From assembly GCA_963662715.1 (NCBI GenBank), contig OY759724.1, positions 2,714,662 to 2,778,661 of the forward strand: a stretch of DNA of 64,000 nt, given 5' to 3'. Positions 5,819 through 59,147 of the stretch are shown here, piece after piece. The notes beneath the pieces were generated by a model that searched no databases, had not been told where the DNA came from, and saw only the letters and a program-made list of their open reading frames with translations. This DNA comes from Candidatus Omnitrophota bacterium (GTDB taxonomy: Bacteria > Omnitrophota > Gorgyraeia > Zapsychrales > JANLHA01). The translations under genes and the position numbers were made by a program. The stretch's first letter is position 1; the number at the start of each line of letters is the position of its first letter.

Positions 5819-8554
5819 ATGACAAAACTTTCGTTGGGGATTCTTATAGCCGCATTATTAGCTGTCTTTTTTTGCGGAACAAGCTATGCAGACTCGGAGA
5901 CAGATTACCATTATTACATGGTCCTGGGGATCAGAGCTTTTGATAAAGGTTTCTATGATAAAGCGATTTGGTATTTTGAAGAAGCCCAGGCTGTAGACCC
6001 TACCAAAAGCACTCCTTTAAAATATATCAAGCTTATTAAACGGTTCAAGGAAGGCCGTTTGTCTGTTGTTCAGCCGCCCGTTCGGCAGAAAAAAGGGGCG
6101 CCCACACCCGTTGCGCAGGAAAAGTCCGTCATTGAACAGCACCTTGCGACATCCCGAAAAATGATCGAAGCTAAAGACATGGTCCTGCAGCCTAAGGAGG
6201 CTGAAGTTCTTGTCCTGAATGATCAGTTCTGGTCTCTGCAGCCTAACCTGGAACTGGAAATTGAAACGAACAAGGTTTATGTTTTTCAGGGACAAAATGT
6301 CAAACGTTTTTTAAGTGTCAAAGAAGGCGTGCTGGATGTCGACCGTCTTGATAAGGACCGTATCAGCATATCAGCCAAGAACCGCGCATCGACATTTTTC
6401 CATGTCTGGGACGACCGCGGACGCTGGACTTTTCATGTCCAGGGGAAGCTCCCGGTTCTTTATCAGAATACCCGGGCTCAACAGTTTAAGGATACAGGGA
6501 TGGAAGACAATCCTCCTTTAAAGATAGCTTATTCTAATAACTGGGGGGCTATTTATCGGGGCAACAGTATTCCGGACATGGAACGTTCGAGTTTGACATT
6601 TACCCAGTGGGTCGGGACACACGGAAGAATCCCATACGGAAACTTTGATGCCTCCATGAATTTTTACAAATATGCAGAATCCACGGAAAGAATCGGTGAA
6701 CGGATGGGCTTGGGGGACGGACGCATCGGCCCGTTTAAGGATTTTAATATACGCGGCTTTGATACCGAAGTCTATTTGTCGGATTTCTCCGTGCCGGGGC
6801 GAAGCTTCCGAGGGGTGCGGTTTGACAGTTACGCATTTAACCGGAGATTGAATTATACATTATTTCAGGGGCAGGACAGGGCCCAGTTCCTTTTTATCAG
6901 CCCTTCCATTCTGGATGTCCGTAAGACCTATATTGAAGGCGCCAGTGCCACCTTGTTCCCGGACAGTGACCATAACTACACGATTAATTACGCCCGGGGC
7001 TACGGAGACTACCGGGATAACTTTTTGAAAAATAAAGCATTTTCTGCTGAAACCGAACATAAGTTTTATAATTTAAAGGTCTCCGGGGAAGTGGGGTACG
7101 ATGAAGACGTCTATAGCGAAGTTATACGGACAGAATTTAAAAGATATAATCACACTCTGAATGTGAATGTCCGCGATATTCATAAGGATTATGTTACCGT
7201 TGTCGGACGCCCTTCCGGCCGGGGGGAAGCCGGCGGGAATATCCGTTATAATTTGAAACTGGAAAAGACGCGTTTTAATTCCAACCTCGACGTTTACCGG
7301 AACCGCTATCTGAACAACCCTGAACAGGACGGGGTGAATTTTGACTGGAACGGCTCCATGAATCATACCTTGTCTTCCAGCTCTTCCTGGTCCGCGGCAG
7401 CATTTGTCTCCTATACGCCGCAGCTTGTTTCCCCGCATCAAAGCATGAGCCTGACAAACTATTATCATAAAAGGTTCCCTTTCCTCTACGGTCAGGCCAT
7501 GTCGATGTCTTTGGGGCATTCTTTCCAGAGAAATCGTTATGAAGAATCTCCCTTCGCGGAATTTGACCGCAACACGTTATCGGCGGGCTTTAGAATCCCG
7601 CTGTTCCCGGACGTGGGTTTTTTTGCCAATTATGATTACTCTTTTGTCCATAATATCCAGGAAGACCTGCAGACTTATCCCCAGGTCTTCACAGCCGGCG
7701 TGGACTATAATAAAACCCTGTATAATCATGTCATCGGCCGGTGGAGCCTCCGTTATCGTAATGAGGAAAATGCCACCGGTCAGTTCAGTTTTTTATCGGG
7801 AGAAGATTCGATCCGGGGAACAGTGGGCCTCAGTTACCGCCCGAATCCCGGTTTTGAAATTTACCTGGACAGTAATGTCCGCAGTGTCTGGACAGAGGAC
7901 CCGGATAACCCCGCTTTTAATGATGCCGATGTCCGAATCGGTTTTCGCTCCAGTTGGGACACGTTCTTCCATTGGAATCCCACCGGGATTTTCCAGGGAC
8001 GGGTCTTTAATGATAGCAACGGCAATGCCCGGTACGACCCGGGGGAAGAGGGGCTGGCTGACATTGGGGTGAAAGTCGGAGATAAGACCGTTAGGACCAA
8101 CAGCCGGGGAGAGTATTTTGCCACGGTCAGGGCGAAAAAAGTGCGTGTCGCTTTGGATCTGGGATCTTTACCCATGGGATACATCAATTCAGACGGTTTT
8201 ATGCGGGATATTGTCGTGGAACATAGACAGGTTAATGCGGTTGACTTTGGCCTGACCAGCCAGGCCGGGATTTACGGTGTCGTTTATATCGACCGGAACC
8301 TGACCGGAACGCTGGATCAGGGAGATGAGTTTATCGCAAGGGCGAAGATTATCCTTGATGGACAGCATGTCGCGTACAGTGATTTTGAAGGGACATACAG
8401 CTTTGATAACATTAAACCCGGTCAACATGTCATCTCGATCGATATCAATTCTCTTCCGCTCCAATATATCCCGCTTATCAAGCTCAACAATGAGATTGAA
8501 GTCGGGGAAGGGATCACGTATGTTTTTAATATCCCGTTAAAGGAAGGAAAATAA
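5819..8554 (+). CDS. Large outer-membrane protein: TPR-like N-terminus, CpaC/secretin-N-like beta domain, Tyr/Asn/Gly/Arg-rich putative beta-barrel, two C-terminal CarboxypepD_reg-like domains
   Basis: Signal peptide; segment VLVLNDQFWSLQP...RFLSVKEGVLDVDRLDKDRISISAKNRASTFFHVWDD resembles the CpaC N-domain; aromatic-rich alternating beta pattern; C-terminal SNGNARYDPGEEGLADIGVKVGDKTVRTNSRGEYF. Confidence 0.5.
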   Translation: MTKLSLGILIAALLAVFFCGTSYADSETDYHYYMVLGIRAFDKGFYDKAIWYFEEAQAVDPTKSTPLKYIKLIKRFKEGRLSVVQPPVRQKKGAPTPVAQEKSVIEQHLATSRKMIEAKDMVLQPKEAEVLVLNDQFWSLQPNLELEIETNKVYVFQGQNVKRFLSVKEGVLDVDRLDKDRISISAKNRASTFFHVWDDRGRWTFHVQGKLPVLYQNTRAQQFKDTGMEDNPPLKIAYSNNWGAIYRGNSIPDMERSSLTFTQWVGTHGRIPYGNFDASMNFYKYAESTERIGERMGLGDGRIGPFKDFNIRGFDTEVYLSDFSVPGRSFRGVRFDSYAFNRRLNYTLFQGQDRAQFLFISPSILDVRKTYIEGASATLFPDSDHNYTINYARGYGDYRDNFLKNKAFSAETEHKFYNLKVSGEVGYDEDVYSEVIRTEFKRYNHTLNVNVRDIHKDYVTVVGRPSGRGEAGGNIRYNLKLEKTRFNSNLDVYRNRYLNNPEQDGVNFDWNGSMNHTLSSSSSWSAAAFVSYTPQLVSPHQSMSLTNYYHKRFPFLYGQAMSMSLGHSFQRNRYEESPFAEFDRNTLSAGFRIPLFPDVGFFANYDYSFVHNIQEDLQTYPQVFTAGVDYNKTLYNHVIGRWSLRYRNEENATGQFSFLSGEDSIRGTVGLSYRPNPGFEIYLDSNVRSVWTEDPDNPAFNDADVRIGFRSSWDTFFHWNPTGIFQGRVFNDSNGNARYDPGEEGLADIGVKVGDKTVRTNSRGEYFATVRAKKVRVALDLGSLPMGYINSDGFMRDIVVEHRQVNAVDFGLTSQAGIYGVVYIDRNLTGTLDQGDEFIARAKIILDGQHVAYSDFEGTYSFDNIKPGQHVISIDINSLPLQYIPLIKLNNEIEVGEGITYVFNIPLKEGK

Positions 8555-12214: not shown

Positions 12215-13572
12215 GTGTGAATATCCGACAAGTGGAGGTTTTTGCTGAACAAACCTTTCCTGATTTCGGAGTTAATAAGAGACGGGAGATTATAAGGCTT
12301 TTATATGAGATTGCCAAAAGGGAAGGATGTGCCGTGGAGACGATCCTACACGAGGACCTCCGGAGGACAAGGTCTTTCCGTGCGGTAAAGTCCTATCTTC
12401 TGAAACGCCGCTACCCCGGAACCACGCCGGGTGAGAGGGGGGGGCATCATCGCTTTTTAAAGGTCACGGCGCCTTGTGCCGCAGCTCTCCCGGAGAGTGA
12501 CGTCAGGGATTTGTCTCCCGAAATAATATCTGTTGAGGAAGAGTTGCTTGATCATCCGTTTGTCATGCGGATGCGGCAGACTTTTCGGGATGCTGAATTC
12601 CGGGGCATGGCTTCATACAGGGATGAGATAAGGAGGCGTGCTGTTTTCGGGGAACAGGATTACAATGAGCGGAACAGCCATTTTTTTATTGTAAAAGAAC
12701 GATTTCAATTCTGGCTCGATTGCCCTTGTTCCGCAAAATCCGTTCCTTGCGGATACACGATCCTCAACCTCGGACAGGGCTGTCCCTTTAACTGTTCCTA
12801 CTGTTTTCTGCAGGGCTATGTGAATTCTCCGGGACTGGTTTTCCCCGTCAATACGGATGATTTCTTTAAGGCCTTGGAAGAGCACGGGGGGCCCTGGCGT
12901 ATCGGGACAGGACAGTTTACGGACTCACTGGCGCTGGATCATCTGACGCGGTATTCGTTGGGCATCATAGATTTTATGCGTAAGCGCCCGGATTGGGTCT
13001 TTGAATTTAAAACGAAAAGTGATAATATAGATCGGCTGTTGACTGTCGAAGCCCCGGCCAATGTGTTTGTCGGCTGGTCGTTAAATCCGGAAGAGTTTGT
13101 CCGGGAAAATGAAAAGGGGACGGTGTCCCTGGCCAGGAGGATAAAAGCCGCGCGTGCCTGCGCCCGGCAGGGATATAAGCTGACCTTTCATTTTGATCCC
13201 ATTGTTTTTTTTCGGGGATGGGAGGAGGAGTATAAGAGGGTGATCGATTTGCTTTTTGACAAGATTGCTCCTGACCGGATAGCCTGGATCAGTTTGGGGT
13301 GTCTGCGTATGACCCCGAGGTTAAAACAGGCTGTCGAGACCCGTTTCCCTGATTCTTCGATATTGGACGGTATTCTTGTCCCGGGCTTTGACGGGAAATT
13401 AAGGTATCCCCGTTCCCGGAGGATGGAGATTTATAGGTTGATGTTGCATTGGATTCGCGAAAAGGCGGAAAGGGTCCCGGTTTATTTATGTATGGAAGAG
13501 CCGGATTTGTGGATGATCCCCGGCCTGGAGAAGAATTTAAACAAATATATTTTGAGTCAGGATTATGAATAA
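12211..13572 (+). CDS. Radical SAM protein of the spore-photoproduct-lyase (SPL) family with ~170-aa N-terminal extension
   Basis: CPFNCSYCFLQGY (CX3CX2C followed by aromatic, as in SplB); 4-nt overlap (ATGA) with the upstream AKR gene. Confidence 0.55.
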   Translation: MSVNIRQVEVFAEQTFPDFGVNKRREIIRLLYEIAKREGCAVETILHEDLRRTRSFRAVKSYLLKRRYPGTTPGERGGHHRFLKVTAPCAAALPESDVRDLSPEIISVEEELLDHPFVMRMRQTFRDAEFRGMASYRDEIRRRAVFGEQDYNERNSHFFIVKERFQFWLDCPCSAKSVPCGYTILNLGQGCPFNCSYCFLQGYVNSPGLVFPVNTDDFFKALEEHGGPWRIGTGQFTDSLALDHLTRYSLGIIDFMRKRPDWVFEFKTKSDNIDRLLTVEAPANVFVGWSLNPEEFVRENEKGTVSLARRIKAARACARQGYKLTFHFDPIVFFRGWEEEYKRVIDLLFDKIAPDRIAWISLGCLRMTPRLKQAVETRFPDSSILDGILVPGFDGKLRYPRSRRMEIYRLMLHWIREKAERVPVYLCMEEPDLWMIPGLEKNLNKYILSQDYE

Positions 13573-14455
13573 TAAGCCGAAAATGTGTGTTGAATGTCTT
13601 GAATTGGTTGAAGTCGGGCGGGCTGTTGGTGATCTTGCCAGGGCGCTTCTGCAGGAAATTAATAATAAAAATATCAAGTTATTTGATCTCCCGGCGCATA
13701 AGAGAATTTTTTTGTTTATTTTGACCCGGGCTATTAAGACTTTTACTGCCATTGAAGTTTTATGTCTTCAGGGATTCGGGCAGGATGTCGCCGCCCTTAT
13801 CCGGAGTCTGCTGGAAAATTTGATCACGGCCCAGTATATTATTTTTGACGAAAAGACAGCGGATCATATGGCGAAGCGATTTGTCGAATATAAATGGGTG
13901 ATATTCAAGCGTTCCCTGGCGGAGGAGGAACGGGGGTTGCGTCGTTCTGCTGACGAGGAGAAGGTAGAGTTTAACGAGAAGAAGGAATTGATTCTTAAGC
14001 ATGTGGAAGAGTTTAAAAAGAGATATGACATCAAATCCGACCGGGCTTTGATAACTTGGTCAGGTAAAACCGTCAAGGACATGGCTCGGCAGGTCAGTAA
14101 AGAATTGTACGACGAGTATGAGTCAACCTTCAGGAGATGCTCTAGATTTTCTCACCCCACAATATTAGGCGATAAAGAATACATCGTGCAGGATCAAAGA
14201 TCCTTGACGTTTTCTCCCAGGCCGTCTGCTGTCGGCGTGGACATGAACTATCAGGCAGGCATCCGTTATTTTATGGCTTATCTTGATTTGGTGAATAATT
14301 TATTTAAATTGCAGTTCGCTGAAGACCTCAGCGCCCTCCGGAAGAAATTCCAGGATGTTCAGGATCTGCTGAACAAAAAAAACTCCGCGGTATCTCCCCG
14401 AGAAGAATCCCGCGCGACGAATATTCGAGAAGTAAATATATATTTTGATTATTAA
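13565..14455 (+). CDS. Hypothetical protein, AT-rich gene translationally coupled to the radical SAM gene
   Basis: ORF overlaps the stop of the upstream gene by 8 nt; markedly lower GC than flanking genes; no recognised motif. Confidence 0.45.
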   Translation: MNNKPKMCVECLELVEVGRAVGDLARALLQEINNKNIKLFDLPAHKRIFLFILTRAIKTFTAIEVLCLQGFGQDVAALIRSLLENLITAQYIIFDEKTADHMAKRFVEYKWVIFKRSLAEEERGLRRSADEEKVEFNEKKELILKHVEEFKKRYDIKSDRALITWSGKTVKDMARQVSKELYDEYESTFRRCSRFSHPTILGDKEYIVQDQRSLTFSPRPSAVGVDMNYQAGIRYFMAYLDLVNNLFKLQFAEDLSALRKKFQDVQDLLNKKNSAVSPREESRATNIREVNIYFDY

Positions 14456-14602
14456 AGATGACTCTTTAATGATTGTCATAGTGTTTCCGGGTTTGTCCTT
14501 GTCCAAGGTTGTCCGGCTCTGTCATGTTGACAATTTTATCAAAATGCATTAAAAAGTGTGAGGCTAAAACTTCAAAACCGTAACAATGCAGAAGGGATAA
14601 GC

Positions 14603-15457
14603 ATGAATTTCAATACGTTACTGGGGTACTTTGAAGAAGCGCAAGGATTCAAACATATTCAAGAGGTTATTTGTATCCTGTGCGGAGCCTCTTTGGAAAT
14701 CCGATCTTTGGACGGCCGGATTTTTAAATGCAACTTTTCCCCCTCTCTGAGTAAAAAATCCTATGAAAGCAAAGCAGATTTTCATGTCGATTGCCAGCAC
14801 CGCTCGGAAGCGTGCAAGTGTCTTGTTTCAAATATAATAGAGAAGGCAACGATTTCCGGCCAGACCCAGATCAATAAATGTCAGGCCGGCCTCACGCAGA
14901 TATTATTGCCCATTCATATCAGAAAGGAAATCGTCGGTTATCTCATCGTCCTTGAAAATCAGTTCTTCCGACTCAGCTATGTGCAGATCAAAGCGATTAT
15001 TAATCTGCTGGAGAATTTTATCAAGGATATTCAGGCTGAGCTCGACCTGTTCCCGAATTTAAAGAAAGACAACCTGAGTTATCAGCAAATGATCGTTCAC
15101 AAGGTTGTGCAGTATATTAGCGAACATTATCATCAGCCGGAACTTACTCTTAAACAGGTTTCGGAGGCCAACGGCATCAGTTATCATTATTTAAGCCGTT
15201 TAATCAAAAAGGTCCTGAAAACGACCTTTTCTCAGTATTTGAATCAAACGAGGCTGGAAGTCGCTTCGCGTCTTCTGCAGAACCGCAGTTTGTCGGTCAG
15301 TGAGATCGCCTATACCTGCGGTTACGAAGATCCGGGATATTTTTGCAAGCTATTCAAAAGAATGTACGGGAAATCCCCCGGGATATTCCGGCTGAATCCT
15401 CCCAATAGAATCTCTTCTCCCAAGGTAAAACAGAGACTGTTTCCGGCCAGATCCTGA
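14603..15457 (+). CDS. AraC-family transcriptional regulator with N-terminal sensory (PocR-like) domain
   Basis: C-terminal AraC HTH (SQYLNQTRLEVASRLLQN...GYEDPGYFCKLFKRMYGKSP); ATG at 14603 with AAGGGA SD preferred over the upstream GTG at 14558. Confidence 0.75.
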   Translation: MNFNTLLGYFEEAQGFKHIQEVICILCGASLEIRSLDGRIFKCNFSPSLSKKSYESKADFHVDCQHRSEACKCLVSNIIEKATISGQTQINKCQAGLTQILLPIHIRKEIVGYLIVLENQFFRLSYVQIKAIINLLENFIKDIQAELDLFPNLKKDNLSYQQMIVHKVVQYISEHYHQPELTLKQVSEANGISYHYLSRLIKKVLKTTFSQYLNQTRLEVASRLLQNRSLSVSEIAYTCGYEDPGYFCKLFKRMYGKSPGIFRLNPPNRISSPKVKQRLFPARS

Positions 15458-15881
15458 TCAATTGCTTTTCCTGCAGGGTTTTTTCCTTACTTTAGACCTG
15501 TTTTCCTTCACTAAGATTATGAATAATGGCGTTTATTCGAGAGAAATGAGTCAATAGCAAATATTTCCCATAAATGAGCAAATGCGTCCATTGAATAAAT
15601 TTTAAAAGATGATATCCTTTTTTGGGTTATTAAATAGGACTTCAGACAATATGAAAAATTCCAAAAGCACATATAAACCAAACGCTGGCCCGGACGTCAC
15701 ATGCTCCGTCGTGATGCCGGGTTTTTATTTTGTTTTTAAAGCTGAAAGGAGGTGAGTTAAAACCGCTGTATTTTTTTAGGAGAAATTTTTAACGATTAAT
15801 TAAGAAGTAAATTGAAGGAAAAAGGGTTAATGAAGGACAGCATCGAGTTCTTCGCCCTCTATTGTCAAAGTGAGGAATGAA

Positions 15882-18218
15882 ATGAAAAAATTATTAATTT
15901 GGATTTTAGCAATAGCTTTTGCAGCATATCCGGTGGCCGGTTATGCCGAAAGCATCGCTCTTTCTGATTCAGAAATGGATGAGATTGCAGCGGGTGAATG
16001 GGTGGTTCTTGCTGAAGGCGAAACTGTTGAAGATGTTTTTTTCAGCCAGAACGAACTCCAGTCCACTGACGGTTCCCTGAATGAAGTGTCAGGTTTGAGC
16101 GTTGTAAACAGTGTTGACAGTGCGGTTGCCGTGCAGGCTAACGTCGGCAATTCCGAAGATTTGGCGGAAGTTGAAGCCAATCAGGCCAACGAAGCCAACG
16201 TGCTCAACATGAATCCTTCGGTTGACAACTCAACTTCGAACACGGTCACCAACATCACTGAGCAGGATCAAGTGAATGCCTGGTCCAAAGAGACATCGAC
16301 AACGGTCACTTTCTCTCATGAAGATGAAAACAATACCCAGATTTACGACAATGAGCAGTCATCTTCAGCCAACAGCTCTTCCGAATCCACATCAGCGACT
16401 TTAGATGCATCCGCTTCCGGATCTGCCTCATCTCAGGAAGAGCAGTCTGGTTCAACAACAGACTCAACTCTAAACGAAAATCATACAGCCAACACAGATA
16501 ACACGGCTTTCCAGTATGACTATTCGGATGACACAACTTTTGATCTGGATGCTCAAGAGCAAGATTCATCTGCTTCTACGGCTGACACTCAAGAAGAAGA
16601 GTCCACATCGGCCAGTTTAGATGTGCAGGCCGATTATTCTGACAGTGCTGCTGAACAGTCAGAAGAGTCCACATCAGCGAGTTTAGATACACAAGCTGAT
16701 TATGCTAACAGTTCTGCTGAACAATCAGAAGAGTCCACATCAGCCGGTTTAGACGTGCAGGCCGATTATTCTGACAGTGCTGCTGAACAATCAGAAGAAT
16801 CCACATCAGCTAGCTTGGATACTCAATCCGAATATTCTGACAGTTCTGCTTTTGACGCCAACGCCAGTCAATCAGCGCAGGCTGAAAGCAGCTCCCAATC
16901 AGAAGACAGCACATCAGCAACTTTGGATGCCAACCTGTCCGCTTCCGAAAGTGCATCAGAGCAGGCTGCAGCCGAAGACGCGACATCAGCTTCCTTGAAC
17001 GCTGATGCGCAGTATTCTGACAGCGCAACAACGGATTCCACAACTGATTTTTCAGCGACTGAAGGAGAAACAACAGCAAGTTCACAAAGTGTTGACGGAA
17101 CTTATAATCAGACCACAGACACTTGCGCAGATTGTGACACCTCCACAACGACTTTTGAGGGAACAGCTGCCACAAGTGACTATTCTGACAGCAAAGATTA
17201 CACCGCGGGCACAACAGCCGGTACAACGGAAAACACAGATGCTTCTGGTTCGCTTGCCGGGACATATGATGCTTCTTCGGCAGAGTCCAGTTCAGCAGAG
17301 TCCAGCAGTGAAGCCTCAGGTGGGTTAAATGCCACTTATGATGATTCTTCTTCTGAATCCGCGAGCGAAGCTTCTTCTTCAGATGCTTCAGGATCAGTTG
17401 CTGCGTCTAATGACACAACAGCATCAGGTTCTTTGAATGCCGCTTATGATGATTCAGCTTCTTCATCTTCTTCAGAAGACACAACAGCGTCAGGTTCTTT
17501 GAATGCTTCCTACGATGATTCAGCTTCTTCTGCTGCTTCAGAAGACACGACAGCGTCCAATTCTTTGAACGCCGCCTACGATGATTCAGCTTCTTCATCT
17601 TCTTCAGAAGACACAACAGCATCAGGTTCTTTGAATGCTTCCTATGATGATTCTTCTTCCGCATCTACTTCCGAAGCCGAATCATCTGATTCTTCATCAA
17701 GCTTGGTTGTCGGTTACACAGATGCTGATTCAGAATCTGTTGCTGCTTCTCATGATGTTGCTGCATCCACAGATAATATCAACACCACAGACCATGCTGA
17801 TGAACACAGCTCATCATCATCAAACAGTTTCGAAGCTGAAGGCGCTTTATCTACATCTTTTGATCATGAAGAAGAGCAGGCCTCCGAATCAGCAGAAGCC
17901 CGCAACAATGATGAATTCAAAGATGAATACGAAAAGACGGAAGTGTCTTTTGAGACAAAAGATACTGAAGCAACAACTAATGATGCTTCTCAGGTTCTCA
18001 CCAACATCACTGAAACGAAAAACACAGATCGCAAGAACAAGAGTGAAAAGAATGTGTTGATCATTTCCGGTTCATCACAGTCCGGAGTCAGCTCGTTGAG
18101 CACAGTGAATGCTGTTGGTTCAGCTGTTGCCGTTCAGTCCAACGTTATTAATGCCACAGGCAGTTTGACTGGTTCTATCAACCAATCAAATATTGCGAAT
18201 GTGACAAACGGTCTTTAA
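15882..18218 (+). CDS. Secreted highly acidic Ser/Asp/Thr-rich repeat protein with N/Q/V/A-rich curli/Fap-like terminal repeats (candidate major fibre subunit)
   Basis: Signal peptide ...PVAGYA; N-terminal LSVVNSVDSAVAVQANVGNS...NQANEANVLN and C-terminal LSTVNAVGSAVAVQSNVINATG...NQSNIANVTNGL repeats; ~600-aa low-complexity acidic middle; ATG at 15882 preceded by GAGGAA. Confidence 0.6.
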   Translation: MKKLLIWILAIAFAAYPVAGYAESIALSDSEMDEIAAGEWVVLAEGETVEDVFFSQNELQSTDGSLNEVSGLSVVNSVDSAVAVQANVGNSEDLAEVEANQANEANVLNMNPSVDNSTSNTVTNITEQDQVNAWSKETSTTVTFSHEDENNTQIYDNEQSSSANSSSESTSATLDASASGSASSQEEQSGSTTDSTLNENHTANTDNTAFQYDYSDDTTFDLDAQEQDSSASTADTQEEESTSASLDVQADYSDSAAEQSEESTSASLDTQADYANSSAEQSEESTSAGLDVQADYSDSAAEQSEESTSASLDTQSEYSDSSAFDANASQSAQAESSSQSEDSTSATLDANLSASESASEQAAAEDATSASLNADAQYSDSATTDSTTDFSATEGETTASSQSVDGTYNQTTDTCADCDTSTTTFEGTAATSDYSDSKDYTAGTTAGTTENTDASGSLAGTYDASSAESSSAESSSEASGGLNATYDDSSSESASEASSSDASGSVAASNDTTASGSLNAAYDDSASSSSSEDTTASGSLNASYDDSASSAASEDTTASNSLNAAYDDSASSSSSEDTTASGSLNASYDDSSSASTSEAESSDSSSSLVVGYTDADSESVAASHDVAASTDNINTTDHADEHSSSSSNSFEAEGALSTSFDHEEEQASESAEARNNDEFKDEYEKTEVSFETKDTEATTNDASQVLTNITETKNTDRKNKSEKNVLIISGSSQSGVSSLSTVNAVGSAVAVQSNVINATGSLTGSINQSNIANVTNGL
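16590..16860 (+). repeat. Tandem array, 4 near-identical 66-bp units (22-aa EESTSASLDVQADYSDSAAEQS) plus a degenerate fifth
   Basis: Unit motif GAGTCCACATC recurs at 16599, 16665, 16731 and 16797 (period 66). Confidence 0.85.
17412..17675 (+). repeat. Tandem array, 4 x 66-bp units (22-aa DTTASGSLNAAYDDSASSSSSE); units 1/3 and 2/4 are pairwise most similar (132-bp higher-order repeat)
   Basis: GACACAACA/GACACGACA recur at 17412, 17478, 17544 and 17610. Confidence 0.85.
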
Positions 18219-18229
18219 TAAGTAATAAA

Positions 18230-18281
18230 AGGGTTGGGGGGAGGCATCTCCCCTCAACCCTGATTTTAAATGATGGTTTTT
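18230..18281 (+). terminator. Intrinsic terminator-like hairpin (12-bp G/C-rich stem incl. one G-U) followed by T-rich tract; candidate partial terminator or attenuator after the major subunit gene
   Basis: aGGGTTGGGGGg aggcatct CCCCTCAACCCT then GATTTTAAATGATGGTTTTT. Confidence 0.5.
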
Positions 18282-18300
18282 AAAAAGGAGATGGTCTGCG

Positions 18301-18756
18301 ATGTCTAGAAAGATAGGGTTTCTACTATTAAGTGTAGTTTTTCTGAATATGATTATCAACCCTGTGTTTGCAGATGGAAACGCAGTCGTCCTGTCTGATG
18401 AAGAGTTGGATCAAGTATATGCGCAGGGATTTAATTTTAATTTTGATGAGTTTCTGGGAAATCTGGACAGCATTCTTTCTTCTCCTGACCTAAAAGTTGA
18501 TTTAGATTTAGCCAAGGGTGGAACCGTGACTTTTACCGGTGATTCCGGAGTAGAGCAGCAGATATTTGCTACAGAAACCGGTGATATCAATTATATCAAT
18601 TTGCAAGATTATGCCCAGCAATTTGCCAATAGTCTGATCAATGTGAATGCCGCAGGAAGCAATGTCCTGGTCGGGTTAAATTTGACCGTCCTCGTCAATT
18701 CGGTTGTGAACGGGGACATCAAAAGTTATAATTTCAATAACAACAGTTCCAGGTAA
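18301..18756 (+). CDS. Small secreted paralog of the 15882 protein (candidate nucleator or minor subunit)
   Basis: Signal peptide; shares N-terminal LSDEELDQV motif and C-terminal N/V/A/G-rich repeat (NSLINVNAAGSNVLVGLNLTVLVNSVVNGD) with the large repeat protein. Confidence 0.55.
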   Translation: MSRKIGFLLLSVVFLNMIINPVFADGNAVVLSDEELDQVYAQGFNFNFDEFLGNLDSILSSPDLKVDLDLAKGGTVTFTGDSGVEQQIFATETGDINYINLQDYAQQFANSLINVNAAGSNVLVGLNLTVLVNSVVNGDIKSYNFNNNSSR

Positions 18757-18815
18757 AGAAGCTTTTTATACATAATCATTGCGCCCTCCTTTTCTTTCAT
18801 TTAATATATATCATT

Positions 18816-19499
18816 ATGAATAATAAAATTTTTATAATTTTAAGTGTTTTTTACCTTTTTGTTGCTCCCGGCCATGCGGCTAGCATTTCGGTGGGGGGCG
18901 TCAGTATAAACAAAAAGGTCAAAAATTTAAAAGAGCTTCGTCAGGAAAATGTTGTCACGCAAAGCCTTGATTATAGTTGCGGGGCCGCGGGTTTGTCGAC
19001 CCTTTTGAATTATTATTTGAATGATCCTACCCCTGAAATCGTTATCATCGATGCCCTGCTCAAAACCATCCCTTTGCAAAAAGTGCAAGCACGCCAGGGA
19101 TTCTCTTTATTCGATTTAAAGAAATTCGCGGAATCCAGAGGATACCAGGTAACCGGGTATAAGATGGACTTCGAATTTTTAAAATCCATAGGCAAACCGC
19201 TTCTTGTCCCGATAAAATTCAAGAATTACCGGCATTTTGTCGTGGTTAAAGGTGTTGTCGGTGACAGGGTTTTTATCGCCGATCCGGCCGTAGGGAATAT
19301 GACAATGAAAGATGAAAAGTTCAAAGCCATTTGGACCAACGGCATCGGCTTTGTGGTTGAGCATCCGGAAGGCTCAAGGAACGAAGATTATGCTTTGCGT
19401 ATTGAAAATGAAGATGTCCGTATGGCGAATTATCAATCCTTGAAGCGTCTCACCAGTCCTGCCTGGGTCCGGACAGCAATATTTACAAACGAATGGTGA
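18816..19499 (+). CDS. Stand-alone periplasmic C39-family (bacteriocin-processing-type) cysteine peptidase, FapD-like
   Basis: Sec signal peptide; QSLDYSCGAAGLSTLLNYY matches the C39 catalytic Cys context; ~227 aa with no ABC transporter fusion. Confidence 0.7.
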   Translation: MNNKIFIILSVFYLFVAPGHAASISVGGVSINKKVKNLKELRQENVVTQSLDYSCGAAGLSTLLNYYLNDPTPEIVIIDALLKTIPLQKVQARQGFSLFDLKKFAESRGYQVTGYKMDFEFLKSIGKPLLVPIKFKNYRHFVVVKGVVGDRVFIADPAVGNMTMKDEKFKAIWTNGIGFVVEHPEGSRNEDYALRIENEDVRMANYQSLKRLTSPAWVRTAIFTNEW

Positions 19500-19505
19500 T
19501 CTTTT

Positions 19506-20966
19506 ATGCGTTTTAACCGAATATTATCAACAATATTGGTAGTGCTTTTCGTATGCTTTTTTGGGGTCTTCGTGTCCCGGTCGCGCCTTAGATATCCGGA
19601 AATTGATTTGACCGCTATTAAAAGGCAGTTAAGGGAGGAGATTAAAGACGAATTGCGCGCCGAACTGCTGCTTGAAATGGGAGATGTCATAACCCGGGAA
19701 GTTCAAAAAGAGGTTCATCTTTATCTTGCGCAGATACACAAGCAAAAGGCTGATACAGAAAAGTATAGCCATTTGCAGCCCTCTGCTTCCTATGATGATG
19801 CTCTTGCCCGCAATTCCCTGACCCAGCAAGAGGAAAGAGAAACGATTCGGGAGGCTATCCAGCGGACGGTACGTGACGTCGTTCAGGAATACAATGCACA
19901 GCTTTCTGATGAGGAATTAGCCGCAACCGTAGCCAGCGGCGGACTTGATCCTGCGGTGACTCTTCCGGGCAGTTTGTCAAAAACCGTACAGGATGACCCT
20001 GTCCTGTTAGCGGCGGCCGAGGCATCCGCGGGGAGCCAAAAGCAGACATCCTCTTCTCAGCCGGTTCCCGTGAATTCAAAAGACGCGACAGCCGGTTCCA
20101 ATTCCGGTAAAGTTGATTCTATTGAAAGGACATTGGTCCAAAAGGGAAGCATCCTCTTGCCTAAGGGGAGATTGCAGTTTGAACCCAGCCTGACCTATGC
20201 GCATTCCTCTTCCAACCGGCTATACATCGACGGCTTTAGTATCCTTCCGGTCCTTGTGGTCGGCGATATCTCTACAGAAAAAGTGCAGCGGGACGTTTTC
20301 ATTAATACCTGGACATTCAAATACGGTTTAAGGCACAACCTGCAGACAGAAGTCAGGGTTCCTGTCCGGTTTGAATATGACCGCATTACGAACACCGACA
20401 GCACAACGTTTGACCAGACGGATAATAAAGGCGGCCTGGGCGATATCCAGGTTTCTGTGAGCCGCCAGATCGGGTGGGAACACGGTCTCATCCCGGATTT
20501 GGTCGCGAATCTATCGGTGAAGTCCAATACCGGGGATGAACCTTACAATACGGATATTGCCTTGGGAACCGGGCACTGGGCTGTCAGCGGGGCTCTGGTT
20601 GCGGCCAAGGCCAGCGATCCTGCTGTTATTTTTGGCAGTTTGAATTATACGTATAATATCCCCCGCAGCGATATCGAAAACTACGGAAAAATAGACCCGG
20701 GAGACTCGATAGGTTACAGTTTGGGAACCGCCATCGCGTTGAGTTATCAAACAGCCATCAATTTTTCATTTGATCATTCTATTACCGATAAAATGGTCAG
20801 GAACGGCCAAAAGGTCCCCGGCTCTTTCCTGAATGCCGCTAATTTCAAGACCGGTTTTAACTGGGCTTTGAATGAACGGGCTTCCGTGGATTGTTCTCTC
20901 AGCTTTGGCTTGACTCAGGATTCTCCTGATTTCACATTTGAACTCCGTTTCCCGTATAATTTCTGA
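19506..20966 (+). CDS. Outer-membrane beta-barrel protein with N-terminal coiled-coil domain (FapF-like architecture)
   Basis: Signal peptide; ~100-aa E/K/R/L-rich predicted coiled coil; Ser/Ala/Gln-rich linker; C-terminal alternating beta pattern ending FELRFPYNF; starts 7 nt after the C39 gene stop. Confidence 0.5.
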   Translation: MRFNRILSTILVVLFVCFFGVFVSRSRLRYPEIDLTAIKRQLREEIKDELRAELLLEMGDVITREVQKEVHLYLAQIHKQKADTEKYSHLQPSASYDDALARNSLTQQEERETIREAIQRTVRDVVQEYNAQLSDEELAATVASGGLDPAVTLPGSLSKTVQDDPVLLAAAEASAGSQKQTSSSQPVPVNSKDATAGSNSGKVDSIERTLVQKGSILLPKGRLQFEPSLTYAHSSSNRLYIDGFSILPVLVVGDISTEKVQRDVFINTWTFKYGLRHNLQTEVRVPVRFEYDRITNTDSTTFDQTDNKGGLGDIQVSVSRQIGWEHGLIPDLVANLSVKSNTGDEPYNTDIALGTGHWAVSGALVAAKASDPAVIFGSLNYTYNIPRSDIENYGKIDPGDSIGYSLGTAIALSYQTAINFSFDHSITDKMVRNGQKVPGSFLNAANFKTGFNWALNERASVDCSLSFGLTQDSPDFTFELRFPYNF

Positions 20967-21102: not shown

Positions 21103-21498
21103 ATGAACAGAAAGTTTTGCGCATTCTCGTTGATTCTTCTGAGCCTTGGCCTTGTATCGATCGTGAACATTGGTCAAGGGGCGGATTTAACGCGGCCTAA
21201 GGGCCAGCAGGAGAAGGAATGCCGTGTCCAGAATTGTCACGGGCTCGAAATCCAATGCGGTTTCAGTGAACCCAAAGTGTGTACCGAGATGTATCAGTTG
21301 GGTGATTTTTGCCGCGCCTTTGCTGAATGTCGTTTTATAAAAGGTGAGTGTCAGTTTGTGAACAATGATCTTTTCCAGGGATGCAAAGACTGCGTTTTGG
21401 ATTGCGAACGCAATAAAGATGAGATCAATCCGTTTATTTGTGAGGTCAAATGCCGGAAGGAATTTGAGCCGTATATTTATGGAAAACCCCTTAATTGA
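21103..21498 (+). CDS. Small secreted cysteine-rich protein (14 Cys in ~105 mature residues)
   Basis: Signal peptide MNRKFCAFSLILLSLGLVSIVNIGQG; Cys spacing consistent with multiple disulfides. Confidence 0.45.
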   Translation: MNRKFCAFSLILLSLGLVSIVNIGQGADLTRPKGQQEKECRVQNCHGLEIQCGFSEPKVCTEMYQLGDFCRAFAECRFIKGECQFVNNDLFQGCKDCVLDCERNKDEINPFICEVKCRKEFEPYIYGKPLN

Positions 21499-55933: not shown

Positions 55934-56515
55934 ATGACGCACGCTGACGAAGAACTGATTTTAGAGTTTCAAAACGGCAATGAATCGGCTTTTGAAGATT
56001 TGTTTCAAAAGTATAAAACGCCTATCTTTAACTTTGCGATGCGCTTCCTGGGGACCCGGGCGGATGCGGAGGATGTTGTGGCAGAAGTTTTTTTGAAATT
56101 ATACACACAAAAAAATGCCTACCGGCCCAAAGCCAAGTTTTCAACCTGGCTGTTCACCGTGGCCCGCAACACCAGTATCTCTAAAATCCGTTCCAGGAAG
56201 AGATTTGTGTCCATGTGGTTTGTCCGTGATGAGAAAGACACGTATGAAGAAATCGATGTCCAGGATACGGCCCCGCTTCCGCGGGAAGAGATCATGAACC
56301 GGGAAACGGCAGCCGCTGTGCAGCTCGCTGTCCAAAAACTGCCTCCGGATCAGAAAGAGGCCCTGATCTTGCGGGAATATCACCGTTTTAAATATGACGA
56401 CATCGCTCTGATTTTAGGGTGTTCTTTAGAGAATGTGAAAATACTTATATACAGGGCCCGGGCCCGTTTGCGTCGAGATTTACCATCACAATTGATGGAG
56501 GGGCAAGATGACTGA
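55934..56515 (+). CDS. ECF-type RNA polymerase sigma factor (sigma-70 family)
   Basis: Region 2 FEDLFQKYKTPIFNFAMRFLG..AEDVVAEVFLKLY; region 4 DQKEALILREYHRFKYDDIALILGCSLENVKILIYRAR. Confidence 0.85.
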   Translation: MTHADEELILEFQNGNESAFEDLFQKYKTPIFNFAMRFLGTRADAEDVVAEVFLKLYTQKNAYRPKAKFSTWLFTVARNTSISKIRSRKRFVSMWFVRDEKDTYEEIDVQDTAPLPREEIMNRETAAAVQLAVQKLPPDQKEALILREYHRFKYDDIALILGCSLENVKILIYRARARLRRDLPSQLMEGQDD

Positions 56516-59147
56516 ACATGAAAGAATCCAGATGCTGATTTCAGCTTATGTTGATCAGGAATTGCCTGATGATGACCGGCAGACTGTTGAAAACCATTTG
56601 TCGGAATGCCAGGAGTGTCAGCGTTTTTACAAAGATGTCCGAAGAATTTCCTCTTCTCTTAAAAGCTGGACACCGGAAACTCTCTCTCCCGATTTAGAAC
56701 AGAGAATCGCCAGCCAAGTTAAAGCTCGAAAGAGCCGGGAGGAGCAGACCATGCGTAAATATTTTAATATCCCGTACAGTGCCGTGAGCACGCTTGTGAT
56801 TTGTATGCTTGTTTTAACCGTGTCATTACGTGTTTATATGAAGAGGAATGTCCAGACGGCTTTTAAAGAGGCCGGGGATGCCGTGACAGAGGAGCATTTG
56901 GTGCAGGAAACGGAACGGCAGATCAGGAGAAAGGAAGATGCTGCAGCCGTGCGTTCGTCTTCAGAAATCCCGGAGACGGTTGAACAGCAAAAATCTGTCC
57001 GTCTGGATGAAGCTGACAGTATTGAAATTGAGCCGTCCCGGCAGGAGACAGCCCCGCCGGTTGAAGCGTTTAAGTCGGCCCGTTTCGGTCAGAAAGGGGA
57101 ACGCCGGGTGGCCATAGCCCCTTTGTTGGATAAAGAAGAAAAGGCCGGGCCGGATAAAAGTGTTGATCATAAAGATATGTCCCGGCTTTCCGGGTTAAAT
57201 CATGAAATGACCAGTAAAGAGGTGACGGCAAGGGCCGGAGAACAAGGGGCCGTGTCTGCCGGTAAAACCACGGGATATGTCTCTCAGCCGGCTATTGATA
57301 TTGTTCAGAGCCAGGTGTCTTCCGCTTCCGCCGTAAACGGCAGAGATCAGTCCCGGAGTGTGCTTTTTAAAGGACAGGCCGTTTCAAAGGCCGCGTTTAC
57401 GGGCTCAGCGGCGGATGAAGGCGGCGTGGCCGGACAGGTGTATCTTGGCGAAAGCAAGAAAAAGATCCCGGCAGATAAACTGTATTTTGAAGCAGCCGAC
57501 GGGAATTTTGCCGCTTCAGCCAGAGGAACAGCCCCGGCCGGAGCCGCTTTGTCGGTGATGGATGCCCGGCTGCGCGGTCCCGCTGTAACAGAAGAAGCCG
57601 AATACTGGGGGGATGCCTCATCCAGTGCCGTTATTTACCCGGACACGGGTGTCTCACCCATGAGGCCGGGTTTTATGATCGTTAAACCGGAAGAAGGCTG
57701 GGAAGAACCGTATGATCAGCCCTGGCAGGACCATAATGCCGAAGAATACGACCGTATTTATGAAAATGAATTCCTGGCGGCGATAGACAATCCGTTATCC
57801 ACCTTCTCGATCGACGTTGACACGGCTTCTTATGCCAATATCCGCCGTTTTCTGAACGACGGACAGATGCCGCCGCAGGACGCCGTCCGGATAGAAGAGA
57901 TGGTGAATTACTTTGTCTATGATTATCCTCAGCCGGATAAAGGGGAGCCGTTTTCGATCAATACCGAGACCGCCCCCTGTCCGTGGAACAGAGGGCATTT
58001 GTTGACCATGATCGGCCTGCAGGCCAAACAGTTATCCGCCGGTGAAATGCCGCCCAGCAATCTGGTTTTCCTGGTTGACGTGTCCGGGTCCATGAACCGG
58101 CCGAACAAACTTCCGCTGTTAAAGTCGGCCCTGCACATCATGGTTGACCAACTGCGGGAGGAGGAGCGGATATCTATCGTGACCTACGCCGGGCAGGCAG
58201 GCCTGGTGCTGGAATCGACCCCGGGGTATGAAAAAGAACGGATACGTCAGGCCATCGACCGTCTGCAGGCCGGCGGGTCTACGGCCGGGGAACAGGGCAT
58301 ACAGCTGGCGTACCGGATCGCCCAGCAGAATTTTATCCCCAGCGGGAATAACCGCGTTATCCTGGCGACGGACGGCGATTTTAACATCGGGATCAGCAGC
58401 GACGCGCAGCTCGTGCGGGTGATTGAAGAGAAGCGGGACCAGGGGATCTTTCTGAGCGTTCTGGGATTCGGGAAAGGAAATTATAAAGACTCCAAAATGG
58501 AAAAGCTTGCGGATAAAGGCAACGGCAATTATTATTATATCGATACTTTGAACGAAGCGCAGAAAGTTTTGGGCTCTGAACTGGGGTCGATGCTGTTTCC
58601 GGTGGCCAAGGACGTGAAAATCCAGATAGAGTTTAACCCGTCGCAGGTTAAAGCTTACCGCCTGATCGGGTATGAAAACAGGGCTTTGGCCAAGGAGGAT
58701 TTTAATGATGATACGAAAGACGCCGGGGAACTGGGCGCCGGACACACGGTGACGGCTTTTTATGAAATTGTGCCCATTGATTCTGAAGAGGAACACCGGA
58801 AGATTGATCCTCTGAAATATATGCGCACGGTTGTGCAGCAGAGCGAGGATCTGATGACCGTTAAGTTAAGGTATAAAGACATTCAGGACAGCAAAAGCCA
58901 GCTGCTGACCCGGGCTGTTAAAGGGCGGGAGATCAAAGAGCCGTCAGCGGTTTCAGACAACTTCCGCTTCGGGACAGCTGTGGCGGAGTTCGGGTTGCTG
59001 CTCAGGCAATCCCCGCATAAAGGCGAGGCTTCTTATCTGAATGCCCTGCAACGGGCCAAGGGGTCTTTAGGGGAAGACCCGTGGGGATACCGCGCCGAGT
59101 TTATCCGTTTGGTTGAAAAAGCGGTGGTTTTGGATAAAGGCTATTGA
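56508..59147 (+). CDS. Anti-sigma factor (zinc-finger) fused via TM helix to large extracytoplasmic region with von Willebrand factor A domain
   Basis: N-terminal HLSECQECQ anti-sigma zinc-binding motif; TM segment VSTLVICMLVLTVSL; VFLVDVSGSMN (MIDAS DxSxS) vWA domain; overlaps the sigma gene stop. Confidence 0.75.
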   Translation: MTEHERIQMLISAYVDQELPDDDRQTVENHLSECQECQRFYKDVRRISSSLKSWTPETLSPDLEQRIASQVKARKSREEQTMRKYFNIPYSAVSTLVICMLVLTVSLRVYMKRNVQTAFKEAGDAVTEEHLVQETERQIRRKEDAAAVRSSSEIPETVEQQKSVRLDEADSIEIEPSRQETAPPVEAFKSARFGQKGERRVAIAPLLDKEEKAGPDKSVDHKDMSRLSGLNHEMTSKEVTARAGEQGAVSAGKTTGYVSQPAIDIVQSQVSSASAVNGRDQSRSVLFKGQAVSKAAFTGSAADEGGVAGQVYLGESKKKIPADKLYFEAADGNFAASARGTAPAGAALSVMDARLRGPAVTEEAEYWGDASSSAVIYPDTGVSPMRPGFMIVKPEEGWEEPYDQPWQDHNAEEYDRIYENEFLAAIDNPLSTFSIDVDTASYANIRRFLNDGQMPPQDAVRIEEMVNYFVYDYPQPDKGEPFSINTETAPCPWNRGHLLTMIGLQAKQLSAGEMPPSNLVFLVDVSGSMNRPNKLPLLKSALHIMVDQLREEERISIVTYAGQAGLVLESTPGYEKERIRQAIDRLQAGGSTAGEQGIQLAYRIAQQNFIPSGNNRVILATDGDFNIGISSDAQLVRVIEEKRDQGIFLSVLGFGKGNYKDSKMEKLADKGNGNYYYIDTLNEAQKVLGSELGSMLFPVAKDVKIQIEFNPSQVKAYRLIGYENRALAKEDFNDDTKDAGELGAGHTVTAFYEIVPIDSEEEHRKIDPLKYMRTVVQQSEDLMTVKLRYKDIQDSKSQLLTRAVKGREIKEPSAVSDNFRFGTAVAEFGLLLRQSPHKGEASYLNALQRAKGSLGEDPWGYRAEFIRLVEKAVVLDKGY

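Follow-up and report, generated by a model that had tools for sequence, protein, structure and literature searches.

A 64,000-nucleotide stretch of contig OY759724.1 from a Candidatus Omnitrophota bacterium (the whole stretch is called the window below) carries four consecutive genes, A, B, C and D, which we interpret as a two-step secretion cassette of the FapD/FapF type with its own, undescribed cargo family. According to the reading that we favour, and consider fairly probable, the C39 peptidase C reads a leader on the cargo proteins A and B, and the pore D exports a polyanionic, self-associating surface or matrix protein. A first-pass annotation, made from the letters of the window alone, had proposed a Fap-like functional-amyloid secretion locus at this place. 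This idea holds for the machinery but not for the subunits. The open reading frame (ORF) listing of the window confirms all four genes at the coordinates given in that annotation:

15882-18218, plus strand: gene A, 778 amino acids (aa), with signal peptide, leader, module 1, acidic linker and module 2; presumed major exported subunit
18301-18756, plus strand: gene B, 151 aa, with signal peptide, leader and one module; presumed minor subunit
18816-19499, plus strand: gene C, 227 aa, a predicted Sec-exported, stand-alone C39 cysteine peptidase of the FapD/FilB type
19506-20966, plus strand: gene D, 486 aa, a predicted FapF-type outer-membrane transporter with the C-terminus ...RFPYNF

The spacers between them measure 82 bp (A-B), 59 bp (B-C) and 6 bp (C-D). 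Relatives of the outer-membrane protein (OMP) D were gathered by a genome scan with a nine-sequence alignment, which reached mostly Omnitrophota. Among them, about 20 independent Omnitrophota loci, whose OMPs are 40-67% identical to D, show the order (DUF5677)-(AraC/PocR)-A-B-C39-OMP again, and thus the arrangement is not due to chance; the four-gene set recognised in the first pass is a real unit. The C39 and OMP genes stay adjacent in all related loci. The nearest systems outside the phylum are found in Marinobacter, Nitrospinota and an unclassified metagenome-assembled genome (MAG), where the same cargo family adjoins C39 and OMP genes.

The protease and the pore carry the clearest family assignments. 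C matches Pfam Peptidase_C39 (3e-23) and the NCBIfam models FilB (3e-41) and FapD (4e-32), while D matches Pfam Phenol_MetA_deg (5.5e-12), the FapF hidden Markov model (HMM) NF058560 (5e-45 over residues 184-486) and FilC (3e-19). These scores lie far below the equivalog cut-offs, with 111 against 330 bits for FapD (NF058616) and 141.6 against 475 bits for FilB in the case of C, and 154 against 700 bits for FapF (profile positions 92-420 only) and 69.6 against 630 bits for FilC in the case of D. Consequently, C and D are to be placed, on their sequences, as members of the FapD/FapF-type and FilB/FilC-type families and not as orthologues. Gln49, Cys55, His140 and Asp156 of C align with the catalytic residues of the double-glycine (GG) protease LahT150 (6mpz), and PCAT1 was aligned too. 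None of the four residues varies among 121 homologues, and every one of these proteins has kept an N-terminus like a signal peptide, so that the Sec-exported, stand-alone C39 peptidase announced by the first-pass annotation has its predicted active site intact and is not a dead enzyme. C is not fused to an ABC exporter, nor is there one in the cassette. A database search with C returned Omnitrophota relatives only. FapD of Pseudomonas is periplasmic and its catalytic Cys is required for FapC secretion, its substrate being unknown (PMC5557850; PMC6173800).

D resembles FapF in sequence and in predicted fold. The FapF structures (5O65/5O67/5O68) are its only solved relatives by sequence (phmmer 5e-32, residues 210-486), and the top 18 Foldseek matches are all FapF chains, with E down to 4e-23, TM(target) of 0.78-0.86 and about 27% identity. 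The AlphaFold model, built with 16 homologues, has a confident barrel at residues 223-486 that ends in Phe and a long helix at residues 35-87 (confidence score pLDDT ~80-86). A conserved helix at residues 192-213 (SIERTLvQKGSILLPKG) stands just before the barrel, with a variable linker between it and helix 35-87, as seen in a monomer model. The barrel and the final Phe had been foreseen, and what had been called an N-terminal coiled coil is this confidently predicted long helix. We thus regard D as a FapF homologue with a predicted FapF-fold, 12-stranded barrel, and the likeness of C and D to FapD and FapF that the first pass had pointed to holds. The Pfam family of D and its second-best fold match, the COG4313 channel 4rl8 (7e-16, 16% identity), would also suit a COG4313/Phenol_MetA_deg-type uptake channel for hydrophobic compounds standing beside unrelated genes. 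However, FapF beats 4rl8 by seven orders of magnitude in E and by 27% to 16% in identity, D always adjoins a C39 peptidase and leader-bearing proteins and carries the leader itself, and C39 peptidases are not reported in COG4313 operons (PMC6173800). We give an uptake channel a negligible probability.

What links protease, pore and cargo is a short leader common to A, B, D and canonical FapE, which had escaped the first-pass annotation:

15948-15995, plus strand: A leader, residues 23-38, by alignment; ESIA-LSDSEMDEIAAG (L-S-D-S-E-M-D-E-I-A-A-G), followed by an invariant E-W-V
18373-18429, plus strand: B leader, residues 25-43; DGNAVV-LSDEELDQVYAQ-G (L-S-D-E-E-L-D-Q-V-Y-A-Q), followed by G-F-N
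19902-19943, plus strand: D residues 133-146, LSDEELAATVASGG, a leader-type element in the predicted periplasmic linker

In A and B the 12-residue element L-S-D-x-E-[LM]-D-x-[IV]-x-A-G lies 4-6 residues past the predicted signal-peptide cut. C39 peptidase domains recognise the classical double-glycine leader LSxxELxxIxGG (PMC5557850, PMC11798529). The consensus L-S-x-x-E-L-x-x-I-x-G-G (hydrophobic at -4, -7 and -12, Glu at -8) is matched in register by LSDSEMDEIAAG in A, LSDEELDQVYAQ in B and LSDEELAATVAS(GG) in D, the last two positions being A-G, A-Q and A-S, respectively, instead of G-G. The leaders of relatives that do have a final GG, with the register unchanged, reach the bacteriocin_sig model TIGR01847 (16.5 and 15.7 bits, cut-off 15.7) and also match the lacticin-481, mersacidin (lantibiotic), lactococcin and ComC leader models. 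The motif is highly specific: a regular expression for it, run on 3095 six-frame ORFs (the window plus 35 loci), gave 61 matches, compared with 0.12 in shuffles, and all 61 are in A, B or OMP homologues or in small proteins adjoining the machinery. An alignment of nine Omnitrophota OMPs (consensus LSDEELDxYVASGG) has only two invariant columns N-terminal of residue 197, D135 and A143. The element is present in most D homologues, and that of D matches weakly a leader model for ribosomally synthesised, post-translationally modified peptides (LxmA_leader, 0.005). These observations suggest that the C39 enzyme probably recognises the leader and cleaves it.

The same element was found in Pseudomonas. 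We retrieved 80 Pseudomonas-type fap loci (L039-L118) from metagenomes by tblastn with the PDB FapF sequence, and other Fap and Fil operons by tblastn of PDB FapF against 'plasmids'. In all 73 FapE proteins (73/73), the stretch [LIM]-[KN]-D-x-E-[LM]-[AS]-x-L-R-G-R follows immediately on the signal peptide, near residue 29, and its register is that of the leader in A and B. Among the proteins detected in the 80 loci, no FapB, FapC, FapD or FapF homologue has it, nor does any of the 978 other ORFs; shuffles gave 0.35. A pattern that covers FapE as well as A, B and D is L-x-D-x-E-[LM]-x-x-h-x-[GA]-x, which comes from this analysis and is no published criterion. FapE-like proteins of alpha- and betaproteobacterial variants have an element ending in R-G-G, and FilA has a related one after its signal peptide (M-D-D-A-A-L-S-A-A-T-G-Q). 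In function, the leader would thus link A and B with FapE and not with FapB or FapC. Mass spectrometry showed the mature N-terminus of every Fap protein except FapE in a study that left the target of FapD unknown (Rouse et al., PMC5557850), and in the literature searched we found no later paper that settles it. A review of 2018 makes the same points and lists homologues of fapD and fapF that lie together in five more phyla, but does not describe what they export (PMC6173800). It is tempting to propose, though we put this forward tentatively and as a possibility short of an even chance, that all FapD/FapF-type 'hybrid' systems have their general recognition and processing signal in the 12-residue element placed directly behind the Sec signal peptide; FapE, FilA, the Omnitrophota, Marinobacter and Nitrospinota cargo and some pore linkers would be its carriers. 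If so, FapD-type enzymes would be periplasmic leader peptidases that license outer-membrane translocation, the long-sought FapD substrate would be identified together with a distinct, phylum-spanning class of outer-membrane secretion signal, and A and B of Omnitrophota would represent extracellular fibres of a new class, built by stacking of modules and dependent on a leader.

Beta- and alphaproteobacteria also have variant operons that resemble fap (L034 6464-7936, on the Cupriavidus metallidurans CH34 megaplasmid, L033 and L035). These operons encode a long low-complexity repeat protein (Gly-rich, of NRASGYNT type, or acidic, of DNSIDVADSGN type), a small leader-bearing protein, a C39 peptidase, a FapE-like protein and a pore, the pore linker of Cupriavidus containing ...ESLARKRGG.... 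None of the cargo proteins of these three loci is recognised by the NCBIfam Fap models. In Acinetobacter baumannii CP040048.1 (L030 6565-7404), FilB is split into ORFs 6565-7002 and 7012-7404, unannotated in the record, which suggests a frameshift or a pseudogene in this strain.

The cargo proteins are built from few parts. B has a predicted signal peptide at residues 1-24 of 151, and the remaining elements are as follows:

15882-15947, plus strand: A residues 1-22, predicted Sec-type signal peptide (MKKLLIWILAIAFAAYPVAGYA), with n/h/c pattern and small residues at -3/-1, conserved in homologues
16050-16214, plus strand: A module 1, residues ~57-111 (...LSVVNSVDSAVAVQANV...NQANEANVLN), N/Q/V/A-rich; module HMM independent E-value 4e-13
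16215-18050, plus strand: A linker, ~600 aa, by composition Ser/Thr/Ala/Asp/Glu-rich and strongly acidic
18051-18215, plus strand: A module 2, residues 724-778 (NVLIISGSSQSGVSSLSTVNAVGSAVAVQSNV...NQSNIANVTNGL), with a strongly conserved C-terminus; module HMM independent E-value 3e-18
18589-18732, plus strand: B module, residues 97-144, in single copy

A and B, whose whole-protein BLASTP comparison gives E = 0.003, have two parts in common by alignment: the motif just after the signal peptide and a module of about 50 residues, rich in N/Q/V/A, with the pattern (N)-x-h-x-h-S-x-x-[SA]-Q-x-x-h-x-A-h-x-N-h-N-A-[VA]-[GD]-S-x-V-x-V-Q-x-N-h.... It occurs twice in A and once in B, and the three copies align without gaps. 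The first-pass annotation had made A a 'giant' 779-aa protein with N/Q/V/A-rich ends around an acidic linker of about 600 aa, and B a linkerless paralog with the same termini. The secreted type, the ends and the linker of A stand, at 778 aa and without being giant; B has the leader and one C-terminal module in common with A rather than the same termini, and most of its relatives do have a linker. Homologues of A span 305-1055 aa, keep both termini and vary in their S/A/T/D/E linker, which is always acidic (net charge -8 to -148). Homologues of B span 151-778 aa, usually with a Pro-rich linker that is missing from the clade of the window.

Residues 116-700 of A hold 123 D+E, 6 K+R, 222 S+T and 0 Pro. 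Tandem Repeats Finder places two arrays of 22-aa (66-nt) repeats in the linker, at nt 16595-16850 (3.9 copies) and 17412-17676 (4.0 copies). The linker, which the first-pass annotation had called disordered, is not featureless: along 16227-17981, the motif [ST]-A-S-L-[DN]-x-x-A-[DY]-Y-[SD]-D-S, which has hydrophobic and aromatic residues at intervals, is repeated with a period of about 22 residues, and similar L-x-A-x-h-x-Y motifs are present in the linkers of A homologues. Gene A is split into 2-3 ORFs in three loci (L002 2989-6220, L005 2683-5849 and L017 4659-7825) and is intact, coding for 985 and 1055 aa, in near-identical sister assemblies (L003, L004, L022); the split probably comes from errors of assembly or frameshifts in the repeats of the acidic linker rather than being biological.

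Neither A nor B matches any Pfam or NCBIfam family, and the module HMM matches these two alone among all six-frame ORFs of the 64-kb window. Elsewhere, it matches proteins beside C39/OMP genes: in Marinobacter iranensis, one of 398 aa with two modules, one of 517 aa and others of 143-151 aa; in a Nitrospinota MAG, a protein with three modules; and proteins of an unclassified MAG. A word-indexed search with B gave six matches only, and an exhaustive profile search was used instead. The B-homologue profile then found 128 clusters among 1.84 billion representatives, most of them unnamed proteins of 130-170 aa with a signal peptide, LSDxELDxVTAGG, a spacer and DNAQQNLxSLxNxNAVNSxVxVLLNLN. As judged from such comparisons, A and B belong to a small, unannotated and previously undescribed cargo family.

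This family has to be weighed against the possibility of a true Fap functional-amyloid operon, with A as FapC and B as the FapB nucleator, forming formic-acid-resistant cross-beta fibrils. In favour of such an operon, C and D are FapD/FapF homologues. FapC likewise has repeats separated by variable linkers (PMC6173800), the module has a loose h-N-h-N-A-A-G-S-x-V pattern in common with FapC repeats such as GNIGANIAAGDSNVQGN, and relatives with many tandem modules exist. However, A, B and the isolated modules match none of the NCBIfam FapB (NF058557), FapC (NF058558), FapE (NF058559) and FilA models even at E ≤ 10, while the same models detect the Aeromonas and Acinetobacter proteins (Aeromonas FapB 8e-22, FapC 1e-50, FapE 2e-12). 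The FapB and FapC profiles stand for imperfect repeats of the pattern GN-h-G-V-N-h-A-A-G-x-x-N-x-Q-x-N. Conversely, the module HMM matches neither Aeromonas FapB/FapC/FapE nor Acinetobacter FilA, and hhalign gives module and Fap-type repeats a probability of 1.6%. B and the A termini find no PDB sequence at E ≤ 10, the presence there of the published FapC fibril cryo-electron microscopy chains being unchecked. The only signals are marginal ones: the small-protein profile gives E = 0.043 against Aeromonas FapB, and alphaproteobacterial small proteins E of 0.3-0.4. The leader of A and B is, moreover, missing from FapB and FapC. Homology of the module to Fap repeats is rejected on these grounds, and with it the first-pass view of A and B as counterparts of FapC and FapB; the likeness to Fap or curli repeats is one of composition and pattern only. 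We consider a true Fap operon unlikely.

Other features of A would suit a monomeric surface coat or adhesin, held by its terminal modules on B or D, for example, with the linker as a cation-binding or anti-fouling brush. The linker dominates A and is extremely acidic and Ser/Thr-rich, the single module of B could be an anchor, and the two modules of A might pair intramolecularly. Omnitrophota are thought to be ultra-small, surface-attached or host-dependent nanobacteria, a way of life that would agree with such a coat. Yet relatives whose modules are repeated in tandem 3, 4-5 or at least 13 times, with hardly any linker, resemble stacking repeats, not anchors; A paralogues of about 305 aa with a short linker exist, which makes the brush dispensable; and nothing points to an anchoring partner. 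A monomeric coat is, in our opinion, unlikely. A related cassette in L036 3395-10094 (GCA_024280065.1) and L037 encodes three proteins with the leader (83, 346 and 141 aa), a C39 peptidase and a barrel of only 326 aa that lacks the N-terminal helix. It directly adjoins a GT2/PilZ cellulose-synthase gene and BcsS. This is a biofilm-matrix context. Together with the tandem modules it fits a stackable beta unit of an extracellular matrix, without being proof of it.

Further elements lie around gene A:

13565-14455, plus strand: DUF5677 protein, 296 aa, without signal peptide (Pfam DUF5677 2e-22)
14558-15457, plus strand: AraC-family regulator with PocR sensory domain (HTH_18 3e-22, PocR 2e-7)
15458-15881, plus strand: AT-rich intergenic region of 424 bp before gene A; presumed promoter/operator
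18230-18261, plus strand: GC-rich hairpin with a 14-bp stem, then GATTTTAAAT, directly 3' of gene A; a terminator-like site, possibly an attenuator, a terminator or an mRNA-stabilising element

Most Omnitrophota loci have an AraC/PocR homologue next to the cassette, on its upstream or its downstream side, and the gene to which the first-pass annotation had drawn attention is therefore a conserved neighbour whose product is probably the dedicated regulator of the cassette. Nearly all Omnitrophota loci with upstream sequence have the DUF5677 gene directly upstream of A or of the AraC gene. The region 15458-15881 contains weak sigma-70-like matches only, and a Shine-Dalgarno sequence, GAGGA, at 15872-15876 precedes the ATG of gene A at 15882. 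A hairpin comparable to that of the window is present in the A-B spacer of 14 out of 15 loci (z ≤ -4 against shuffles), despite sequence divergence; a hairpin after A suggests the arrangement expected when a major subunit is made in excess of the downstream genes.

The base composition of the window shows no anomaly. Horizontal transfer of the cassette is rejected on this normal composition, and the synteny across the phylum speaks for vertical inheritance. These results bear on another explanation, namely an export island for a bacteriocin, an autolysin or a peptide signal, like nap of Neisseria. Neisseria nap contains the C39 peptidase NapP, the FapF homologue NapF and GG-motif peptides (PMC11798529), that is, the same protease/pore pair and a GG-type leader, and several small leader-bearing proteins (100-220 aa) adjoin the machinery in some outgroup loci. 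But A, a polyanion of 778 aa, and B, of 151 aa, are not cationic peptides below 10 kDa, there is no immunity-like gene, the cassette is vertically conserved with fixed synteny and without compositional anomaly, and the conserved modules point to self-association. An island of this kind is very improbable.

We come back to the secretion cassette with its own cargo, for which we propose the following course of events. A, B, C and D would all reach the periplasm via Sec. Once the signal peptide is removed, A and B would start with a double-glycine-type leader of 16-18 residues, which periplasmic C would recognise and probably cut at its end, like the C39 domains of bacteriocin exporters. The cargo proteins, still unfolded, would go through the FapF-type, 12-stranded barrel D. 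Since the linker of D carries the leader element between the long helix and the plug-like pre-barrel helix, C probably docks on or processes D at this element, and cargo recognition might in this way be coupled to gating. Outside the cell, the modules of about 50 residues would associate by beta-strand stacking. A would be the bivalent major subunit, whose polyanionic linker of about 600 residues would produce a hydrated, negatively charged fibre, mesh or brush, and B the monovalent minor subunit, serving as nucleator, anchor or cap. The hairpin would keep A in excess over B, C and D, and the AraC/PocR protein would switch the cassette on.

Several points weigh against this proposal. The module lacks detectable homology to the repeats of FapB and FapC and, by sequence, to any solved structure, and the cassette has no counterpart of FapA or FapE. 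The leaders of A and B in the window match no GG-leader model, TIGR01847 included. The final residue of the leader differs widely within the family (G, Q, H, E, R and A) and is Arg in FapE, and therefore the scissile bond cannot be placed; the element could instead be a docking signal that is never cut. In this clade, the N-terminal hydrophobic segment of D is long and has no clear signal-peptidase site. The AlphaFold model of B is uninformative (pLDDT 41.7), and beta-stacking or amyloid formation is conjecture. Hydrophobicity and aggregation hot spots do lie nearly all in the A termini (with an exception at residues 606-612) and in the B module, on a rough scale that is indicative only.

Other genes lie around the cassette. 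A secreted-looking protein of 131 aa with about 14 Cys and no family match is encoded at 21103-21498 (plus strand). Its gene is directly downstream of the cassette in L001 and L007 and about 4 kb downstream in L008; as the wider set lacks it and none but the closest relatives have it there, we do not count it as part of the cassette. In sister Omnitrophota clades (L002-L005, L014, L017, L022), an STT3-type oligosaccharyltransferase gene and PilM/PilN/T2SS-K genes come after the AraC gene of the cassette. STT3 adjoins the cassette there and none was seen among the large ORFs of the window, and a link to N-glycosylation was dropped. The DUF5677 gene in the clade of the window comes after a spore-photoproduct-lyase-like gene. 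Two other large envelope-type proteins, neither of them showing a link to the cassette, are encoded in the window: one of 911 aa with an SdrD B-like domain (5819-8554, plus strand) and one of 879 aa with zf-HC2, vWA and YfbK_C domains (56508-59147, plus strand).

The literature searched contains no paper linking Omnitrophota with FapF or C39 cassettes, the sole mention of an Omnitrophota C39 concerning giant proteins. In this sense, the first-pass statement that the system had not been described agrees with our search. Pairs of fapD and fapF outside Proteobacteria were already noted in 2018 (PMC6173800) and so are not new. What appears to be new, as far as that literature goes, is the cargo family, the arrangement of a Sec signal followed by a GG leader, the presence of the leader on the pore and its identity with the N-terminal element of FapE. 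The question of what FapD acts on becomes, with the leader, directly testable. FapD/FapF-type machinery would serve, besides Fap, another cargo family, separate and without annotation, that occurs in Omnitrophota, Nitrospinota and Marinobacter. Its unusual feature would be a bacteriocin-type leader that comes after a Sec signal peptide, for recognition in the periplasm. In Omnitrophota, secretion of a polyanionic fibre or coat could matter for attachment, and the leader and pore pair might serve as an outer-membrane export tag for disordered proteins.

Among known systems, curli (CsgA/CsgB, CsgG) is similar in concept only, with N/Q-rich imperfect repeats, export of unfolded subunits via a dedicated channel and a major and a minor subunit. 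It has no sequence or structural relation to the cassette; CsgG is a nonamer whereas the predicted pore here is a FapF-type barrel, and curli has neither protease nor leader. PCAT, ComA and LahT are closer in their recognition signal. The leader consensus is in register, its GG-ending members reach TIGR01847, and C aligns with LahT150 and PCAT1. They differ in that the Omnitrophota leader stands behind a Sec signal peptide, its recognition being expected in the periplasm instead of the cytoplasm, that C is not fused to an ABC transporter, that the leaders of the window end in A-G or A-Q, and that the cargo is a large structural protein rather than a peptide.

Neisseria nap also uses a FapD/FapF-type pair for a non-Fap cargo with GG-type processing signals. 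The nap products, however, are cationic, autolysis-promoting peptides below 10 kDa, and nap is a horizontally acquired island, while the Omnitrophota cargo is large, acidic and modular and its cassette vertically conserved. With the putative Fil pilus of Acinetobacter (FilA-F; NF050077-79), the cassette has in common a C39 peptidase, as C fits FilB better than FapD, a FapF-type barrel, FilC, and the related post-signal-peptide element of FilA. FilA finds no match and the cut-offs of FilB and FilC are not reached, FilC being the most distant OMP compared (1e-15), and no counterparts of FilD (a long FadL-like OMP), FilE or FilF were seen among the neighbours of the cassette.

The Fap system of Pseudomonas (fapABCDEF), whose FapF is a trimeric, plugged barrel of 12 strands, offers a close parallel. 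In both, a periplasmic, stand-alone C39 peptidase with an intact active site stands beside a FapF-fold barrel with an N-terminal helical periplasmic domain, the low-complexity cargo is Sec-dependent and presumably unfolded, and the 12-residue element of A and B is present, in FapE. The Omnitrophota cassette differs from it by the lack of FapA, FapB, FapC and FapE homologues, by the order cargo-cargo-protease-pore, by the polyanionic linker of its cargo and by a host that does not belong to Proteobacteria. Whereas in Pseudomonas only FapE carries the leader, in Omnitrophota all the cargo and the pore itself carry it.

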